A stretch of 34,240 bases of DNA from Acidimicrobiales bacterium (GCA_050743525.1 JBOGFV010000022.1:1-34240), one strand, 5' to 3'. Positions 21,007 to 29,265 are shown, counted from the stretch's first letter. Numbers and translations are program-made. The notes: generated by a model not told the origin, from the sequence alone.

Positions 21007-22275
21007 TCAGCCCTCGACGTAGAGCTCGCCGTTGCCGCCTTCGGCGATCGTGAGGCGGCGCAGTCCGGTCGCGGCCGGGCCCTGGACCACGGCGCCGTTG
21101 TCGGGATTGAACTCGGAGCCGTGGCATGGACAGGCGATGATCCGCTGCGAGGGGAGGTAGCCGACGGTGCAACCGGCGTGGGGGCACAGCGCGTCGTAGG
21201 CGACGAAGCGTCCACGTTCGAGCTGGATCACCAGCGACGGGAACCGGGTGGTGGGGTCGTTGAAGGCAGCCGAGCCACCGACCGGCACGTCCTTGGCCAA
21301 CCCAATTGCGTGTCCGGGCGGGGTGGCGGTCGTGGGCCCGGTGGCGGACCCGGTGGTTGTCCGGGTCTTGGTGGGTTGAAGGGAGACGGGCAGGGGCGCG
21401 GCTTTGGCCCCGCCGACCATCCGGCCGATCCCGGCGGCGGCACCCGCCGCGGCAAGCCCGACGGCGCCGACCGCGGCGGCGGCCGTCCCCGTGACAACCA
21501 GCTGGCGGCGGGTGATCTGGCCCGGTGCCTCCGGCTCGGCGGCGCGCCTGGGCGGGTGGTTGAGGAACGGACATGGAGCTGGCTCGCAGACCGCCCCTCG
21601 GCGGGCCCGGCACCGCCCGTCGTCGAACTGTCCGCAGACTCGCTGGATGGTGCCGAACGGGACGGTCACCGGAACCCCGGAGCCCTGGCCGTGGACGGCC
21701 CTCCTCCGGGTGGCCAGCATCGCATCGACGGAGAGCACTCCGCCGGCGCCAGCGATGACGAGCGGCGTCCACGCGAACACGAACACGATGTCGGCGCCCG
21801 TGTAGTAGGGCGCGGCGTTGTAGCTGACCGTGAGGAAGAGGAGCAGGGAGAGCAGGGCTCCGAACCCCGCCGCCACCCGCGTCCAGAGCCCGGCCAGCAC
21901 CCCGAGACCGATCGCGAGCTCCCCGAAGGCGATGAGGAGGCCGATCGGCGTCGAGAGACGGAGCAGGTGGCCGAGAGCGAAATTCAGGGGGCTGATCCGG
22001 TCGGCCGCCACCATCTGGGCGTAGATCCCGGCCGGGTCGGCACGGGTGAAGAAGTTGGGGTTGGCCAGCTTCTGCAGCCCGGCGACGCAGAACGTCACGC
22101 CGAGAAACGCTCGGAGGGGGAGCAGCGCCCAGCCGGCGAGCATCGGAAAGCGCGCCGGTGGCCTGGTCAGCCGATGGCGGAGGCCGGGCACGACTTTCGA
22201 CGCTACCGGCCCTAGGGAGACGGGTGACTGAGGCCCGAGCGGACCGCGCTCATCCCTTGACGAAAAGCTGACCAC
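21007..22275 (-). CDS. Fusion protein: DoxX/DoxD-like membrane domain, Cys-rich linker, Tat-like RR-TM segment and Rieske [2Fe-2S] domain
   Basis: N-terminal part: LLPLRAFLGVTFCVAGLQKLANPNFF plus 4 TM helices. Linker: CGQFDDGRCRARRGAVCEPAPCPF. Then ITRRQLVVTGTAAAAVGAVGLAAAGAAAG. Rieske motifs: CPHAGCTVGY and CPCHGSEFNP. The start is uncertain: 22275 overlaps the upstream gene by 26 nt, and an alternative ATG lies at 22143. Confidence 0.8.
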   Translation of the reverse strand: MVSFSSRDERGPLGPQSPVSLGPVASKVVPGLRHRLTRPPARFPMLAGWALLPLRAFLGVTFCVAGLQKLANPNFFTRADPAGIYAQMVAADRISPLNFALGHLLRLSTPIGLLIAFGELAIGLGVLAGLWTRVAAGFGALLSLLLFLTVSYNAAPYYTGADIVFVFAWTPLVIAGAGGVLSVDAMLATRRRAVHGQGSGVPVTVPFGTIQRVCGQFDDGRCRARRGAVCEPAPCPFLNHPPRRAAEPEAPGQITRRQLVVTGTAAAAVGAVGLAAAGAAAGIGRMVGGAKAAPLPVSLQPTKTRTTTGSATGPTTATPPGHAIGLAKDVPVGGSAAFNDPTTRFPSLVIQLERGRFVAYDALCPHAGCTVGYLPSQRIIACPCHGSEFNPDNGAVVQGPAATGLRRLTIAEGGNGELYVEG

Positions 22276-22699
22276 CCGAGACTGTGATGGTCAGCTTCTT
22301 CAGCCCGTGGGGCGCCGGCCCGCGCACCCGACGGCCGGTGGCCGGGTTGAACTGGGATCCATGGCAGGGGCACTGGATCAGGTGCTCCTGCGGCACGTAG
22401 CCGACCGTGCAGCCCTCGTGCGGGCACACCGCGTCGTAGGCGACGAACTTGCCCCTGTGCAGCTGGATGACGAGCGAAGGCAGATGGGTCTTGGGGTCCG
22501 CGAAAAGGGCGGAGGATCCGACCGGTACCGCCCTGGCCGGGCCGATCCTTTTTCCAGCGACCTTGGTGGTCGCTTCCGCGGCCCCGGTGCCCACCGTGGC
22601 GGCACCGGCGGCCCCAATCGCGGCGGCCCCGGCGATCACGACCTGGCGCCGGGAGAGCGTCTCGCGGGCGGGCGGCGGCAAAGGATTGGAGTGGTCCAC
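22250..22699 (-). CDS. Tat-signal Rieske [2Fe-2S] protein
   Basis: GTG start at 22699. Twin-arginine signal LSRRQVVIAGAAAIGAAGAA. Rieske boxes CPHEGCTVGY and CPCHGSQFNP. By eye it is about 60% identical to the C-terminal domain of the downstream fusion protein. Confidence 0.85.
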   Translation of the reverse strand: MDHSNPLPPPARETLSRRQVVIAGAAAIGAAGAATVGTGAAEATTKVAGKRIGPARAVPVGSSALFADPKTHLPSLVIQLHRGKFVAYDAVCPHEGCTVGYVPQEHLIQCPCHGSQFNPATGRRVRGPAPHGLKKLTITVSGGQLFVKG

Positions 22700-23126: not shown

Positions 23127-23924
23127 TCAGCCTCGGTCGGGCTCGCCGTTGAGGGCGTTCTGGCGGCCCCGGCGCCAGTACGGCTTGAAGCTCACCCGGT
23201 CGGCGTCCATGCCCCGAGCGATCAACACGTCGCGGAGCCGGGTGACCATTGCGTGCTCGCCCCCGACATAGGCGTGGCCGGTCCCGGTAGGGAGGGCCGT
23301 GTCGGCCAGGGCGGCCTCGAGGGCCTGCGGGTTGCCAAGCGCGCCCTGACGCACCACCCACCGCGGCCCCTCGACGGTCGCGCCGATCTCGCTTGGCTGT
23401 TCGTGGCCGTCACCGTCGATCTCGATCGCCAGGACGACCGTTTGGTTCGGGTTGACCGCCTCGGCCATGTTGAGCGCCGCCGGTGCGAACGAGTCGTCGC
23501 CGAAGAAGAGGTGCCACTCGGCGTCGGGGTCCAAGGTGATTTTCCCCCGCGGGCCGATCGCTTCGATCAGGTCGCCGGTCCGGGCGACGGTGGCCCAGCG
23601 CCGACCGGGTCCGTCGCCGTGCAGGGCGACGTCGAGATCGACCAGGCATCGCTCGTGGTCGTAGTGCCGGATCGTGTAGCGCCGACGCCGAGTCCTGTCC
23701 CCATCGAGGTCCAGCGAGAGCATGAGGTCCTGGCCCGGCAGCGGGTCGAGGGCCGCGAGGTCGTCCCCGCCGAGCCGGACCCGGCGACACGACGGCGTGA
23801 GGGCCCGGGCGTCGACGACCTCGAGGCTGAGGGCGATGACCCCAAGGCGGTCGGCGAGCGCCTCATTGTCGCGACGGCCGGGGCGGGCCTCGCCCGCGGC
23901 GCGCTGGTCAGTGGAGGGGTCCAT
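23127..23924 (-). CDS. Siderophore-interacting protein (SIP/ViuB-type FAD-binding ferric reductase)
   Basis: ATG at 23924 within the longer track ORF. Matching stretches: RRRYTIRHYD (FAD-binding RxYT/S motif), WHLFFGDDSFAPAALNMAE, YVGGEHAMVTRLRDVLIARGMDADRVSFKPYWRRG. Confidence 0.8.
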   Translation of the reverse strand: MDPSTDQRAAGEARPGRRDNEALADRLGVIALSLEVVDARALTPSCRRVRLGGDDLAALDPLPGQDLMLSLDLDGDRTRRRRYTIRHYDHERCLVDLDVALHGDGPGRRWATVARTGDLIEAIGPRGKITLDPDAEWHLFFGDDSFAPAALNMAEAVNPNQTVVLAIEIDGDGHEQPSEIGATVEGPRWVVRQGALGNPQALEAALADTALPTGTGHAYVGGEHAMVTRLRDVLIARGMDADRVSFKPYWRRGRQNALNGEPDRG

Positions 23925-23959
23925 CCCGACATTCTCGCGCCCGACCGGCCGGGCGCGGC

Positions 23960-24352
23960 CTACGAGCTGGTCGACCCCGAGCGAGCCAACAGGTCCCTGA
24001 TCTCGGTCAGGATCTGGACCTCCTCGGACACCTCGGCCTCGTCTGTCTGCGGGCCCCGCCGGCGGGCCAGCACGGCGTTCATCGGGGCGACCACGAGGAA
24101 GTAGACGGCGGCCGCGATGGCGAGGAAGGCGATGATGACGTTGACGAGGTCGCCGTAGTGGAAGGTGCTGTGGTGCACCGTGAAGGTCAGGTTGTTGAAG
24201 TTCGGCTTGCCGGCGATGGCGGCGATCAGCGGGGTGACGATGTCCCGGACCAGCGCCTGGACCACTGCATTGAACGCCACCCCGATGACCACCGCGATCG
24301 CCAGGTCGACCACGGTGCCCCGCAGGATGAACTGCCGGAATCCCTTGAGCAT
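23960..24352 (-). CDS. mscL: Large-conductance mechanosensitive channel MscL
   Basis: ATG at 24352. MLKGFRQFILRGTVVDLAIAVVIGVAFNAVVQALVRDIVTPLI is the canonical MscL TM1. Length 130 aa with a second TM and a charged C-terminal helix. Confidence 0.9.
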   Translation of the reverse strand: MLKGFRQFILRGTVVDLAIAVVIGVAFNAVVQALVRDIVTPLIAAIAGKPNFNNLTFTVHHSTFHYGDLVNVIIAFLAIAAAVYFLVVAPMNAVLARRRGPQTDEAEVSEEVQILTEIRDLLARSGSTSS

Positions 24353-24408
24353 GGTGTGCCCCCTCTCCCTCGGCCACCTCCGGGTGGCCTTCTGGAGCTT
24401 GGCACACC
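24353..24408. promoter_or_regulatory. Nested inverted repeats in the mscL / copZ divergent intergenic region
   Basis: Outer arms: GGTGTGCC (24353..24360) and GGCACACC (24401..24408). Inner arms: GGCCACC (24372..24378) and GGTGGCC (24383..24389), with a 4-nt spacer. The outer arm abuts the mscL start codon. Confidence 0.3.
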
Positions 24409-24474
24409 CCCTGAGCTGGGATCGGGTTCGCGGCGACGGCCCGATCGAGTGAGCGTGGGAATTACGCTGGGCCA

Positions 24475-24726
24475 ATGCCGATCGACGCCGACGGGACTGG
24501 CACCATGGTCGAGCTCGAGGTGGGTGGCATGCACTGTCAGTCCTGTGTGGCCCTGATCGAGGAGACGCTGGCTTCAGAACCCTGGGTGAAGTCGGTCCGC
24601 GTCGACCTCGATGCCGGTCGGGCCCTCGTCGTGTTCGACGGCAGCGCCATCACGGTCGACGAATTGTGCGCCGCGGTGGTGGGGGCGGGTTACCCCGCCC
24701 GCTCTCTCTCTTCTCCGGGTTCCTAA
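24475..24726 (+). CDS. copZ: Copper chaperone CopZ (HMA domain)
   Basis: MVELEVGGMHCQSCVALIEETL carries the MxCxxC metal-binding motif in a ferredoxin-like domain of about 70 aa. An alternative start lies at 24505. Confidence 0.85.
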   Translation: MPIDADGTGTMVELEVGGMHCQSCVALIEETLASEPWVKSVRVDLDAGRALVVFDGSAITVDELCAAVVGAGYPARSLSSPGS

Positions 24727-24775
24727 TGCTCACCGCCCCCTTGGACCGGGCGGTCGCGATCGAAGAGGGCGTCCG

Positions 24776-27394
24776 GTGGTGACGACCAGCGAGCTCGCGC
24801 TCGAGGGCATGCACTGCAGCGCCTGCGCGACCCGGATTGAGCGAACGTTGTCGGGCCGGGCCGCCGTGCTCAGCGCCTCGGTCAACCTGGCCACCAACCG
24901 AGCCTTCGTGACCTACGACACCGATGCGGCGGACCTCGCCGACCTGTGCGCGGCGGTCGTCGCGATCGGCTACGGCGCCACCGAGGCCGGACCCGGTGGC
25001 GAGCCATCGGGCGGTGATTCGGAGCGTTGGATCGCCCGGGCGCTGGTGTCGTGGCCAGCGGCCGTCGCCGCGCTGCTGGTGGCGCTGGTCGGCCCCGAGA
25101 ACGCGACGGCCGGATGGGCGGTCCTCATCCTCGGGATCCTCGTCGAGCTGACCGGGGGCTGGCCATTCATCCGCACGACCGTCCGGCTCCTCCGGCACGG
25201 CGCGACCAGCATGGACACGCTCATCGCGGTGGGGACGCTGGCCGCGCTGACGGTCAGTGCCGTCGAGGCGATCGCCCTCGGCGGCCGCCATGTGCACCTC
25301 GGCGGCAACGGCGCCTTTGCGGCCCGCCTGCACGGCGTGATGGCACCGATCATCGTGTCGATTCTCGTGACCGGCCGAGCCATCGAGGCGCGCGCTCGAC
25401 ACCGGGCCGCCCGCGCGATGCGGTCCCTGATGGGCCTGAGGCCGCCCACGGCCCGGGTCGTGGTCGGCCTCGACGACCAGGAGGGGCGACTGGTCGCGCC
25501 TGAGAGTGTCCCGGTCGGCGCGCTCGTGCGGATCCGCCCGAACGAGGTCATCCCGCTCGACGGCACGGTCATGACCGGCCACTCGGCGGTCGACGAGTCC
25601 CTTCTGACGGGCGAGCCGCTGCCAGTCGACCGCGGTCCCGGGAGTCCGGTGACCGGCGGGACCCGAAACGGGTCGGGCGCATTGGTGGCCCAGGTCGAGA
25701 CGACCGCCGATGAGTCGGTGCTGGCCCAGATGCAGCGGCTCGTCGACGAGGCCCAGCGGGACAAGCCCCCGATCCAGCAACTGGCCGACCGCATCAGCGG
25801 GGTCTTCGTCCCGGCCGTGCTCCTGCTCGCGTTGGCCGCGTTCCTCGGGTGGTGGCTCGGTGACGGCAACTTCGGGATCGCCGTGCTGAGTGCGGTGGCG
25901 GTCCTTCTGGTCGCATGCCCTTGTGCGATGGGCCTCGCCACGCCGGTGGCGATGATGGTCGGCACCGGCCGGGCCTCGACGCTCGGCATCCTGATCCGCA
26001 GCGGGCAAGTGTTGGAGCGCCTCGCTCGGGCCGACACCGTGGCGTTCGACAAGACGGGCACCCTGACCGAGCGGTTCGCCCGGGTGACCACGGTGGCGGC
26101 CGTGGAGGGGATGGGCGACCACGAGCTGCTCGAACTGGCCTCGTCGGTGGAGGCCGAGAGCGAGCACCCGATCGCCTGGGCGATTCGGGACGCGGCCGCA
26201 CCCGCAGGTCAAGCGACCGCGGTCGAGTCGGTCACCGGATCCGGCGTGACCGGCCTTGTCGGCGGCCACCGGGTGAGCGTGGGCCGTGCCGACCCCAACG
26301 AGCTGCCCGCCGCCCTGGCCGATTCCGTCGCTGCGGCACTGGGCCGGGGCGACACGGTGGTCTCGGTGGCGCGCGACGGAGTGGTCGTCGGGGTGATCGG
26401 ACTGGCCACCCCAATTCGACCGGACGCGGCGCCGGCGGTCGCCCAGCTGCACGGCATGGGCCTCGACACCGCCATCTTGAGCGGCGACGGGGCCGAGGCG
26501 GTCAAGACGATCGCGGCGTCGGTGCGCATCGACGAGGTCCGCAGCCGGCTGGCCCCGGCCGACAAGTTGAACGCGTTGCGCGAGTGGCAGTCCGACGGTC
26601 ACCGGGTCGTGATGGTCGGTGACGGCGTGAACGACGCGCCGGCGCTCGCCGCCGCCGACATCGGGTGCGCGGTGGGCAGCGGCGCCGACATCGCCGTTTC
26701 CAACAGCGATGTCGCCCTCTTGGGCAGCAACCTGCACGGGGTTCCGGGGGCGATCGGGATCGCGAGGGCCACTTCGGCGGTCATCCTCCAGAACTTCGGG
26801 TGGGCGATGGGTTACAACATCTCGGCCATCCCGCTGGCGGCGGCCGGCCTTCTCGATCCACTGGTGGCGGCGATCACGATGGGCGTCTCCAGCCTGATCG
26901 TGGTCCTGAACAGCCTGCGGCTCATGCGGCTCGGCCGGGCCGGGATCGATACCATCAGACCCCCGACGCTCTTCCGGGGCGCCCGCGGGTTCGCCGCCTC
27001 GGTGCTGATCCCGGTCGCGTTGTTCGCCGGGGCGACCGTGGTGACGCAGATCTACTCGCCGAGCCGCGGACAGTCGCTGTTGCCGACCTTCTACGACATC
27101 ACCACCGTCGATCTCCCGGGTGGGGTCGGCGCGCAGGTGTACCTGGTCAAAGCGAATGCCGGCGTGAACACCTTCCATGTGCTGTTCACGACTCCGGGCC
27201 CCGCAGTTGGCCGACCCAGCGCCACGGCCGCCCGGGGGAGCGGGGTGCCGAGCCCCTTGCGAATCACCCGGTACAGCCCCAACCACTATCTGGCCGTCGG
27301 GGTGTTCACGCCTGCCGGCACCTGGCACTTCCAGGTCCACGTCCGGGTGGGTGGGCACCAGCGATCCTTCGGCATCGTCCGCACGCTCACCTGA
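24776..27394 (+). CDS. copA: Cu(I)-translocating P1B-type ATPase (CopA/CtpA-like) with an extra C-terminal TM helix and a roughly 110-aa extracytoplasmic domain
   Basis: I prefer the in-frame GTG at 24776 (VVTTSELALEGMHCSACATRIE) over the track start at 24611, which overlaps copZ. Motifs: CPC (LLVACPCAMGLATP), FDKTGTLT, SEHPIAWAI, MVGDGVNDAPAL, MGYNISAIP, MGVSSLIVVLNSLRL. A further 149 aa begin at 26945. Confidence 0.9.
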   Translation: MVTTSELALEGMHCSACATRIERTLSGRAAVLSASVNLATNRAFVTYDTDAADLADLCAAVVAIGYGATEAGPGGEPSGGDSERWIARALVSWPAAVAALLVALVGPENATAGWAVLILGILVELTGGWPFIRTTVRLLRHGATSMDTLIAVGTLAALTVSAVEAIALGGRHVHLGGNGAFAARLHGVMAPIIVSILVTGRAIEARARHRAARAMRSLMGLRPPTARVVVGLDDQEGRLVAPESVPVGALVRIRPNEVIPLDGTVMTGHSAVDESLLTGEPLPVDRGPGSPVTGGTRNGSGALVAQVETTADESVLAQMQRLVDEAQRDKPPIQQLADRISGVFVPAVLLLALAAFLGWWLGDGNFGIAVLSAVAVLLVACPCAMGLATPVAMMVGTGRASTLGILIRSGQVLERLARADTVAFDKTGTLTERFARVTTVAAVEGMGDHELLELASSVEAESEHPIAWAIRDAAAPAGQATAVESVTGSGVTGLVGGHRVSVGRADPNELPAALADSVAAALGRGDTVVSVARDGVVVGVIGLATPIRPDAAPAVAQLHGMGLDTAILSGDGAEAVKTIAASVRIDEVRSRLAPADKLNALREWQSDGHRVVMVGDGVNDAPALAAADIGCAVGSGADIAVSNSDVALLGSNLHGVPGAIGIARATSAVILQNFGWAMGYNISAIPLAAAGLLDPLVAAITMGVSSLIVVLNSLRLMRLGRAGIDTIRPPTLFRGARGFAASVLIPVALFAGATVVTQIYSPSRGQSLLPTFYDITTVDLPGGVGAQVYLVKANAGVNTFHVLFTTPGPAVGRPSATAARGSGVPSPLRITRYSPNHYLAVGVFTPAGTWHFQVHVRVGGHQRSFGIVRTLT

Positions 27395-27566
27395 GCGGTG
27401 CTCGGACACCCGAACGGATCCGCACGTCCCAATCCGTCAGCCCGACCCGCCAGACCGAGAGCCCGAGGCTGGGCTGCCGGTTCCAGCGAGGCCCTCGGGA
27501 GAAACGTCGGGCCCGAACCGTCCGGGCCTGCCTCACTGACCAGGCGCTGTTGGCTACCCTAAGGCC

Positions 27567-28697
27567 GTGCGACTGACCCGGGTTGTGAAATCGTTTGCCC
27601 CGCTGCTGCTCCTGGCCGCCGCCCTCACGGTGGTCATCGGTCCGTCGAGGGCCCAGGGCTCGGTCGCCATCACCACGATCAACCTCCAGCAGGCCCGGGC
27701 CTACACCCCCAAGGCGCCGGCCGGGGCCACCGACGACTACCACTGCACATTGCTCAACCCGCACGTGAAGGCGAACTCCTACATCGTCGGGAGCCAGTTC
27801 TTCCCCGGGTCCAAGGAAGACCACCACTCGATCCTCTTCCTGGTCCCGCCGAACCTGGCCAGCGCGGCCCAGGCGGCCAACGTCGGCAACGGCGGCTGGT
27901 CGTGCTTCGGTGAGACGCCGATCCCGGGCACCGGGCTGGGGCAGATCTCCAACACCCCGTGGCTCGCCGCCTGGGCGCCCGGCCACGGCGCTGACTCGCT
28001 GCCCAAGGGCACCGGCATCTACCTGCCGGCCGGCAGCCTCGTCGTGATGCAGGTCCACTACAACCTGCTGGTCGGGCACAAGCCGGTCAAGAACTCGCTC
28101 ACGCTAAAGACGGTCCCGGCCTCCACGCCGCTGCAGCCGCTGAAGCTGGACCTCATGCCGGCTCCGCCGGACATCCCGTGCCCGGCCAACACCAGCGGCC
28201 CGTTGTGCTCCCGTGCCGCGTCCCTGACCAACCTGGGTCAGCGGTTCGGGGCCAGCGCGGTCGGCTTTGTGAATGCCATCGAGGCGGTGTGCGGCCGGAG
28301 CCCGAGCAACCCGCCGATTGGCGACTCGACCTCGTGCGAGTGGCCCATCTACTCCGACGGCTACATCGTGCGGGCCGGAGCCCACATGCACCTGCTGGGG
28401 GTGAGCTTCACCATGACGCTCAACCCAGGCACGCCGCAGGCCAAGACCATCCTGAACGTGCCGGCCTACAACTTCGACTTCCAGAAGGCCTACACGATGG
28501 CCCACCCGATCCCGGTCCAACCCGGCGACAAGGTGCAGGTCACCTGCAACTACAACCCCCAGCTCGGCCAGGAGCTCCCGCTCCTGCGCAAGGTGGCGCC
28601 GCACTTCGTGACGTGGGGCGACGGGTCCTCCGACGAGATGTGCCTCGGGCTCATGTGGACCGCGACGGCCCTGCCGAACGCCTCGGCTTCGGTCTAG
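27567..28697 (+). CDS. Secreted copper type II ascorbate-dependent monooxygenase-like protein (PHM/DBH fold)
   Basis: Signal peptide MRLTRVVKSFAPLLLLAAALTVVIGPSRAQG. CuH-site ligand pattern: KEDHHSILF and VVMQVHYNL. CuM-site pattern: AGAHMHLLG (HxH) and SSDEMCLG (Met). Conserved Cys pairs: DDYHCTLL and GGWSCFGE. Confidence 0.8.
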   Translation: MRLTRVVKSFAPLLLLAAALTVVIGPSRAQGSVAITTINLQQARAYTPKAPAGATDDYHCTLLNPHVKANSYIVGSQFFPGSKEDHHSILFLVPPNLASAAQAANVGNGGWSCFGETPIPGTGLGQISNTPWLAAWAPGHGADSLPKGTGIYLPAGSLVVMQVHYNLLVGHKPVKNSLTLKTVPASTPLQPLKLDLMPAPPDIPCPANTSGPLCSRAASLTNLGQRFGASAVGFVNAIEAVCGRSPSNPPIGDSTSCEWPIYSDGYIVRAGAHMHLLGVSFTMTLNPGTPQAKTILNVPAYNFDFQKAYTMAHPIPVQPGDKVQVTCNYNPQLGQELPLLRKVAPHFVTWGDGSSDEMCLGLMWTATALPNASASV

Positions 28698-28713: not shown

Positions 28714-29265
28714 CTAGTCCCCGGCCCAGCAGCCGAGGATCACCACCGCCACCGTCACCGCGATGTCGCTGGCCGCGGTCTGGGGCACGCCGAATCGGTC
28801 CGGCAGCCTGGCCACGTTGACGAGGAGCACCTTCCAGTCCTTGCGGACCACGACCGAGCCGTCGGCGGTCTGATAGGCCCCCTGGCCGAGGTTGGCCAGC
28901 GGCCGGACGAACCCCATGGTTCTCTTGAAGGACCGGAAGTAGCTGAACATCTGGTTCCAGCTCGACAGCTCCTGGATCGAGAGGGTGAAGCTCCCGGTCT
29001 TGTAGCCGTACGAGCAGCTGTAGCGGTGATCGCGCCAGGTGCGGGGACCGACCTTGCCCTTCAGCCCCAACGCGTCGGCCAGTTCGTGCTGGGCCTCGGA
29101 CTCGCAGGGCATCTTCGCGATCGGTGACGGCCTGAGTCCGGCCGGGAGCGGCGGTGGCTTCTTGGTCACCGCCGTCGCCGCTCCAGTGATCAGGACACAA
29201 AGCAATCCGGCCACCGCGACCGAGAGCCCCAGTCGGACCAGCGTCCGGATCGGTGCAGCATCCAC
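28714..29265 (-). CDS. Membrane-anchored/exported hypothetical protein
   Basis: 183 aa. N-terminal hydrophobic anchor LVRLGLSVAVAGLLCVLITGAATA, a Pro-rich spacer, then a globular part with 3 Cys. The coding frame has good GC3. Confidence 0.65.
   Translation of the reverse strand: MDAAPIRTLVRLGLSVAVAGLLCVLITGAATAVTKKPPPLPAGLRPSPIAKMPCESEAQHELADALGLKGKVGPRTWRDHRYSCSYGYKTGSFTLSIQELSSWNQMFSYFRSFKRTMGFVRPLANLGQGAYQTADGSVVVRKDWKVLLVNVARLPDRFGVPQTAASDIAVTVAVVILGCWAGD

Follow-up and report, generated by a model that had tools for sequence, protein, structure and literature searches.

An extended copper pump that probably feeds a neighbouring PHM/DBH-like enzyme in soil Acidimicrobiales

Bacterial copper pumps of the P1B-1 type have been described in several settings. 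In CopZ–CopA efflux, as in Escherichia coli, in Legionella pneumophila (CopA) and in mycobacteria (CtpV), an HMA-domain chaperone accompanies a P1B-1 pump with the CPC, YN and MxxSS motifs. Pumps of the CopA2/CcoI/FixI type are second copper pumps beside a conventional CopA and serve exported cuproproteins, and CcoI bears an additional Grx-like site at its N-terminus (PMC8475189). Efflux-type CopA can also supply extracytoplasmic copper proteins: in Rhodobacter capsulatus it is needed for the maturation of the exported multicopper oxidase CutO, and in E. coli it supplies CusF (PMC8456105). In the secretory pathway of animals, the Cu(I) P1B pump ATP7A brings copper into the compartment in which enzymes of the PHM/DBH type fold (PMC8067471). 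PHM and DBM themselves were presented as cuproproteins of eukaryotes only in a 2020 review (PMC7435645). Here, a stretch of 34,240 nucleotides (nt) from an Acidimicrobiales bacterium (GCA_050743525.1 JBOGFV010000022.1:1-34240), called ‘the window’ below and always meant at its full length, is analysed for three consecutive plus-strand genes that encode a CopZ-like Cu(I) chaperone, an extended pump of the CopA type and an exported homologue of the PHM/DBH type II copper monooxygenases. The window has a G+C content of about 70%, and its nearest relatives are metagenome-assembled Acidimicrobiales.

The reading favoured here, to which we give a probability of about one half, is that these genes belong to a copper export and hand-off module specific to Acidimicrobiales, with the PHM-like cuproenzyme as one frequent client, as gene context and structural models suggest. 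The pump probably feeds copper to this enzyme, and the two are recurrent neighbours in soil Acidimicrobiales. Two samples define most of the counts given below. The first consists of 80 genome loci fetched with the PHM-like protein as anchor, all 80 from Acidimicrobiales. The second, a reverse test, consists of 80 metagenome contigs anchored on the C-terminal extension of the pump. Individual loci are designated by L numbers and individual proteins by P numbers. An original prediction, made from the window, had seen in the three genes a dedicated metallation pathway served by a pump of the CcoI type and lacking a copper regulator. Its core stands in part: the recurrent linkage of the genes and the distinctness of the pump clade bear it out, while the CcoI type, the dedication and the argument drawn from the regulator do not hold.

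The extended pump among P1B-1 ATPases

The pump lies in an open reading frame spanning positions 24611-27394 of the plus strand, whose likely start, judged from where copZ stops (24726) and where the HMA domain lies, is GTG 24776, giving a protein of 872 residues. Copper ATPase models recognise it with high scores (TIGR01511, 474.7 bits with a cut-off of 397; TIGR01525, 544 bits), as do the Pfam families E1-E2_ATPase (E = 1.1e-50) and Hydrolase (E = 9e-27). The CopA core (24776-26986, plus strand) comprises an N-terminal HMA domain, eight membrane helices and the A and P/N domains. A single N-terminal metal site, CSAC, is found at residue 14, followed by the catalytic motifs TGE278, DKTGT425 and GDGVND615 and by the motifs of the Cu(I) transmembrane site, CPC381 in M4, YN680 in M5 and MGVSS702 in M6. 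With all family hallmarks present, the protein is, by its sequence, a P1B-1 Cu(I) ATPase with predicted transport activity. The gene in front of it, copZ (24475-24726, plus strand), codes for 83 residues with an HMA domain (Pfam, E = 1e-14) and a GMHCQSC motif (MHCQSC at its core); it matches the CopZ-type models of NCBIfam under their cut-offs and precedes the extended pump in most related loci. Pfam, NCBIfam and motifs together confirm the original placement of the three plus-strand genes, as well as the gap of 172 nt between copA and the monooxygenase gene (27395-27566).

Solved copper pumps align with the window pump as far as about residue 719; LpCopA (3RFU), for example, covers residues 112-719 with 390 bits. 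Beyond this point follow a positively charged loop, an extra, ninth transmembrane helix (residues 738-756; 26987-27043, plus strand) and a C-terminal domain of about 115 residues (residues 757-872; 27044-27394, plus strand), and the label ‘extended CopA’ given earlier to this protein is therefore accurate. In a tree of 78 pump cores, the pumps bearing the extension make up one clade, with conventional CopA paralogues lacking it as outgroup. In some loci such a conventional CopA, 37-40% identical to the extended pump, is encoded nearby.

Reference pumps were then compared in a neighbour-joining tree (710 columns, a single FixI reference, read without support values). They were FixI from a ccoNOQP-fixGHIS locus (L166), E. 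coli CopA, a CueR-linked rhizobial CopA and a CtpV-like pump from a mycobacterial operon of the order regulator, DUF1490, ATPase and DUF5134 (L169); the FixI, CueR-linked and CtpV-like sequences came from a tblastn search against plasmids, where annotations are generic only. The extended clade is a separate branch of this tree, FixI (one reference) lies farthest from it, and the conventional paralogous CopAs cluster with the CtpV-like pump. Identities of the window pump rank in the same way, with 34.6% for FixI, 36.9-37.9% for E. coli and CueR-linked CopA and 41.5% for the CtpV-like pump.

A CopA2/CcoI/FixI-type pump, as originally proposed, was rejected on this evidence. Because FixI is the most distant reference and nothing like the additional Grx-like CxxC site of CcoI stands ahead of CSAC14, the pump is not assigned to this type; in addition, neither ccoGHIS/fixGHIS nor cbb3 oxidase genes were found in the window or in the related loci examined. 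Nor is the extended pump just an ordinary efflux CopA, as its sequences form a clade of their own. These results bear on the strictest account of the locus, in which a low-rate, CopA2/CcoI-like pump would work solely to load the PHM-like protein, with the three genes in one operon. The separation of the pump clade from conventional CopA agrees with such an account, but the failure to cluster with FixI, the missing cco/fix context and the missing N-terminal Grx-like site (PMC8475189) do not.

The same identities also fit a copper-stress island, in which the pump would act mainly in copper-induced efflux and the proteins encoded around it (the PHM-like protein, the secreted protein sec183 and a pair formed by DUF5134 and a membrane protein) would handle copper outside the cytoplasm or be protective, as a sink, an oxidase or repair factors, rather than clients in need of copper for some separate metabolic reaction. 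Indeed, the pump is nearer to the CtpV-like, CueR-linked and E. coli pumps than to FixI. However, in the loci that encode a second, conventional CopA, the latter could bear the load of detoxification.

The PHM/DBH-like gene: linkage and control

The PHM-like gene (27567-28697, plus strand) encodes a protein of 376 residues that scores 31.8 bits against Cu2_monoox_C (cut-off 23) and 20.9 bits against the N-terminal domain, Cu2_monooxygen, which is under the cut-off of 30; some homologues exceed the cut-offs of both domains. When a profile of 26 homologues was compared with the PDB, DBH and PHM were the sole matches, both weak (E = 0.005 and 0.1), and the alignment covers the ligand motifs VHY, HxH and SSDEMC. 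The CuH ligands H86, H87 and H164 and the CuM ligands H273, H275 and M358 do not vary among 26 sequences, and eight cysteines of the protein are invariant too. Its N-terminus resembles a Sec-type signal or anchor, and the protein would have to obtain its copper outside the cell. The family is large, with 2939 homologues among 8000 candidates scored and, taken more widely, 4601 representatives at 50% identity. Distant members (P0307, P0313, P0337, P0292 and P0275) carry N-terminal fusions to cytochrome c (PF13442) and YceI (PF04264) domains, and another (P0258) has a fibronectin type III domain attached. Because of the fused cytochrome c domains the family is taken to be one of real redox enzymes, and the fusions suggest an electron supply built into the protein. 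Together with the six invariant PHM/DBH ligands they are more in keeping with an enzyme that activates oxygen than with a sink, which argues against the copper-stress island. A limited literature search found no function or substrate described for any bacterial PHM-like member. The protein of the window has no database record of its own; a 99%-identical database protein (P0001) is labelled Streptosporangiaceae, against 80/80 Acidimicrobiales among the loci, and this label may reflect mis-binning.

Adjacency of pump and PHM-like gene, a check asked for in the original prediction, was found to be recurrent. An extended pump lies within 10 kb of the PHM-like gene in 34 of the 80 PHM-anchored loci, in several gene orders. 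The commonest has copZ, copA and the PHM-like gene followed by a convergent sec183, and the PHM-like gene comes immediately after copA on the same strand, with a gap of 2-240 nt, in half of the linked loci (24 of 48). In a variant order, a DUF5134 gene and a gene for a membrane protein of 300 residues stand between copA and the PHM-like gene; in another, confined to one clade, they are kept apart by sec183 together with genes for an rRNA methyltransferase and for a nitroreductase. Three loci (L013, L036 and L060) show the inverted order. Linked genes fall into several clades of the PHM tree, interleaved with unlinked paralogues, and are spread over the CopA tree as well; one genome, OY969919, holds a copy without linkage (L006) as well as a linked copy (L082).

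Could this proximity arise without functional coupling, with a PHM-like paralogue simply sitting next to copZA in a slowly rearranging region of one order? That all 80 genome loci are from Acidimicrobiales would agree with this, as would the unrelated methyltransferase and nitroreductase genes that intervene in one clade, the 46 of 80 PHM-like genes that are unlinked and the separate promoter elements of the two genes (see below). Since every relative belongs to one order, the linkage may indeed be inherited synteny in part. Yet proximity survives at least three gene orders and identities between PHM-like proteins down to about 60%, and a copper ATPase is observed in 43% of cases against an expectation, by our own estimate, of about 1-2% per random 20-kb window. 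We regard neighbourhood without coupling as improbable.

The reverse test defines what travels with the pump. Among pump-anchored contigs with at least 3 kb of downstream sequence, sec183 is present in 35/43 and the PHM-like gene in 14/43; with at least 5 kb the figures are 22/25 and 11/25. On these counts, copZ, the extended copA and sec183 make up the conserved core, to which the PHM-like gene is often added without being obligatory. This does not suit the ‘dedicated’ pathway of the original prediction, with sec183 so much commoner beside the pump than the PHM-like gene and with the majority of PHM-like genes unlinked. The account in which the pump serves PHM-like loading alone can appeal to the same-strand adjacency that the window shares with 24 related loci, and to the fact that no regulator is seen in the window among the open reading frames scanned. 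However, most pump contigs are without a PHM-like gene, this gene has a separate -10 element and relatives do carry regulators, and we consider exclusive loading by a single operon improbable.

The two transcription units are best compared at their 5′ ends. Upstream of copZ, the conserved element AATTACGCTGG (24460-24470) contains TACGCT (24463-24468, plus strand), which ends 6 nt before the ATG of copZ, a distance kept in most loci, and which is the putative -10 element from which copZA would be transcribed without a leader. AATTACGCTGG occupies the same position in L001, L002, L004, L014, L017, L019, L101-L107 and others, and is kept among loci with proteins just 40-75% identical. The 9-mer AATTACGCT is found in 23 of 38 non-redundant copZ upstream regions, and the 38 non-redundant occurrences of ATTACGCT are nearly all at one fixed distance before an ATG or GTG of the copZ type. 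Because this conservation far exceeds the needs of a generic -10 element, AATTACGCTGG may be the target of a particular sigma factor or regulator. Neither a conserved -35 element nor palindromes of the CsoR, RicR, CueR or CopY type (including TACCC-N-GGGTA and ACCCC-N-GGGGT) were found in the 38 copZ upstream regions.

A putative -10 element of the PHM-like gene, TACCCT (27555-27560, plus strand), is located 6 nt upstream of GTG 27567. When 98 non-redundant PHM-like genes were compared, 76 showed the same geometry (in-frame TANNNT-N5-7-start), whereas shuffled sequences gave 1.3/98 on average; for this reason the PHM-like gene probably has its own leaderless promoter even when directly behind copA, and it and copZA are probably transcribed separately. 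A single transcript of the three genes is accordingly not required. Scanning the 172-nt gap for terminator and promoter consensus and folding it gave nothing above chance; the small inverted repeats it contains are not terminator-like, and an Rfam scan of the whole window returned zero matches.

As to regulators, it had been argued that a detoxification operon would carry one and that none is visible. The observation stands, as CsoR, CopY/BlaI, MerR/CueR and ArsR domains were all missing when the plausible open reading frames of the window were scanned with Pfam, but the inference drawn from it is weak, since regulators of the ArsR or BlaI families stand beside the same pump in many relatives. 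A gene of the ArsR family (HTH_5) is divergent from copZ in L084, L101-L107 and L112, and one of the BlaI/CopY family (PF03965) occurs in L083, L098, L099, L116, L118, L133, L135, L143 and L145; L122 has one too, next to the conventional CopA. They are often accompanied by the pair of DUF5134 and membrane-protein genes. Such flanking regulators would be expected of a copper-stress island; against this, no canonical copper-sensing Cys motif was seen in the sequences of the two neighbouring regulators read for it (L083 and L084).

The C-terminal domain, sec183 and further neighbours

The ninth helix (hydropathy peak of 2.08) is followed by a linker of sequence SPxRGQxLLP, immediately outside the membrane, which is invariant among 103 unique sequences, as are P746 and F750 of the helix; H801 and H837 are the only invariant potential ligands of the extension in this set. 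Pfam (even at E up to 10, CopC included) and NCBIfam matched no family to it. Used as a query, the extension (147 residues) retrieved just 10 fragmentary pump C-termini, so that the alignment behind its structural model is shallow; the AlphaFold model made from the resulting 11 sequences (mean predicted local distance difference test score, pLDDT, of 79) shows a helix at model residues 11-34 and a beta-sandwich after it. Its top fold match in the PDB is Helicobacter pylori CrdA, which is CopC-like (9ll2; E = 7.6e-5; TM score 0.53 normalised to the query and 0.70 to the target), with Ig-like domains scoring close behind. By analogy with the usual topology of such pumps the domain would face outward, and the modelled beta-sandwich is a candidate copper acceptor. 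A FixH-like identity was also considered and rejected (hhalign probability of 0.3%). In a limited search of the literature, no P1B pump with a fused, outside-facing domain was found described.

Since CrdA is a protein of copper resistance, this top match is also what the copper-stress island would lead one to expect, as is the presence of DUF5134, the partner of the CtpV-like pump in its cso-type operon, in 13-16 PHM-anchored loci and in many contigs anchored on the extension. Weighed against the ligand set and cytochrome c fusions of the PHM-like family, the regulators without copper-sensing motifs and the additional conventional CopA, these points leave a mainly protective island unlikely in our judgement. 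DUF5134 itself is absent beside the pump of the window, though it stands beside the orthologous pump in many relatives and beside the reference pump of L169.

Within the favoured export and hand-off module, the tightest and commonest partner of the extended pump is sec183 (35/43 contigs), an uncharacterised secreted or membrane-anchored protein of 183 residues whose gene (28714-29265, minus strand) is convergent with the PHM-like gene. NCBIfam and Pfam gave no matches for it, and none of its 1147 homologues has a Pfam domain. C54, C84, C179, W77, W144 and the C-terminal CWxGD are invariant, and AlphaFold predicts a confident alpha/beta fold (pLDDT of 87) with no usable counterpart in the PDB by fold or by sequence. 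No description of the family was found in a limited literature search.

The module would then work in four steps. First, CopZ would hand Cu(I) to the P1B-1 ATPase and, second, the pump would extrude it, both in line with the established behaviour of these families. Third, the fused outer beta-sandwich may capture copper at the exit, with the two invariant histidines as ligands. Fourth, copper would pass to exported partners, namely sec183 and, where present, the Sec-exported PHM-like protein. The pump may also serve copper tolerance, by analogy with the CopA that feeds CutO in Rhodobacter. A bolder version would make the locus a bacterial counterpart of the ATP7A-to-PHM/DBH route, in which the acceptor-bearing pump loads the PHM-like monooxygenase, possibly via sec183, and electrons come from the exported Rieske/DoxX proteins of neighbouring genes or, in relatives, from fused cytochrome c; we regard this as tentative and somewhat unlikely, and, if true, it would give soil Actinomycetota a new kind of oxygenase system that works outside the cytoplasm.

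Several points weigh against the export and hand-off module. Its support comes from gene context and models; 46 of 80 PHM-like genes stand without an extended pump in their vicinity, and the majority of extended pumps lack a PHM-like neighbour. The relatives come from a single order, and part of the linkage could be synteny by descent. The fold of the extension is generic, with GAE, CBM and Ig domains scoring nearly as well as CrdA, and neither Met nor Cys is conserved in it among the 103 unique sequences. Finally, with the PHM-like gene having its own -10 element, co-expression with copZA is only putative.

Other genes recur around the module. A Lipoprotein_15 protein (PF03640) is encoded in 32 PHM-anchored loci (e.g. 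L028, 11147-11755), directly 3′ of many PHM-like genes or 5′ of copZ, including loci where the PHM-like gene is without a pump; it is absent from the window, has nothing usable in the PDB by sequence, and the literature offered nothing specific on PF03640 or DUF5134. In the window, mscL (23960-24352, minus strand; Pfam MscL, E = 3.6e-35) is divergent from copZ, an arrangement also found in L001, L002 and L092. A 2025 publication (PMC12198049) attributes copper influx to mechanosensitive channels; MscL is an uncertain member of the copper module.

Further upstream are genes for a DoxX-Rieske fusion (21007-22275, minus strand; Pfam Rieske and DoxX) and for a Rieske protein with a Tat signal (22250-22699, minus strand; identified by Pfam), which overlap by 26 nt. 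Homologues of these Rieske/DoxX proteins recur upstream of copZA in L001, L042, L092, L115, L121, L130, L134 and L142 and adjoin the PHM-like gene in L030, a recurrence confined to two clades; a role of the two proteins as extracytoplasmic electron donors is speculative. Between the Rieske genes and mscL lies the open reading frame of a siderophore-interacting (SIP), FAD-binding reductase (23127-24407, minus strand), whose actual start must be further downstream because the frame as listed overlaps that of mscL; this gene is conserved in L001 and L002. Lastly, a VKOR-like membrane protein and, next to it, a putative DsbA-like protein with a membrane anchor, both judged by eye from sequence, are encoded beside a conventional CopA in L015 (15082-16591) and beside the PHM-like gene in L060 (11229-12588).

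Comparison with known systems

PHM/DBH-type enzymes have been treated as restricted to eukaryotes (PMC7435645), yet their bacterial homologues number in the thousands. The recurrent link to a pump gives a handle on the supply of metal to exported cuproenzymes in monoderm bacteria and hints at where the substrate of the PHM-like protein might be found.

The closest sequence relatives of the window pump are the efflux pumps of the CopA1 type, to which it adds, as it does to the solved pumps, a ninth helix and an extracytoplasmic domain of about 115 residues. In its HMA chaperone and in its CPC, YN and MxxSS motifs it agrees with the CopZ–CopA systems of E. coli, L. pneumophila and mycobacteria. 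Loci related to the window share with the cso-type operon the DUF5134 partner; the window pump, in contrast, has neither CsoR nor DUF1490 beside it, and pumps of its type have recurrent PHM-like and sec183 neighbours. With CopC and CrdA the likeness lies in the modelled fold of the extension, for which CrdA (9ll2) is the top match just ahead of Ig-like domains; unlike them, the extension has no sequence-family match and no Met-rich site, shows two invariant His only and is tethered to the membrane through the pump.

The likeness to CopA2/CcoI/FixI is that of a second copper pump which stands beside a conventional CopA and would serve exported cuproproteins (PMC8475189). The window pump differs in that it does not group with FixI, has no ccoGHIS context and no Grx-like site, and its extension has no significant similarity to FixH. 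With animal ATP7A (PMC8067471) the common point is a Cu(I) P1B pump that would bring copper to where a PHM/DBH-type enzyme folds, but the animal pump has many clients and no genetic linkage to them, whereas the bacterial link is one of gene neighbourhood only. CutO and the transfer from E. coli CopA to CusF (PMC8456105) come nearest, as there an efflux-type CopA supplies an extracytoplasmic copper protein; in those systems the periplasmic acceptor is separate, while the candidate acceptor of the window is a domain of the pump itself. The best-supported reading thus has its nearest parallel in the way CutO matures with the help of CopA (PMC8456105), and less of one in CcoI.

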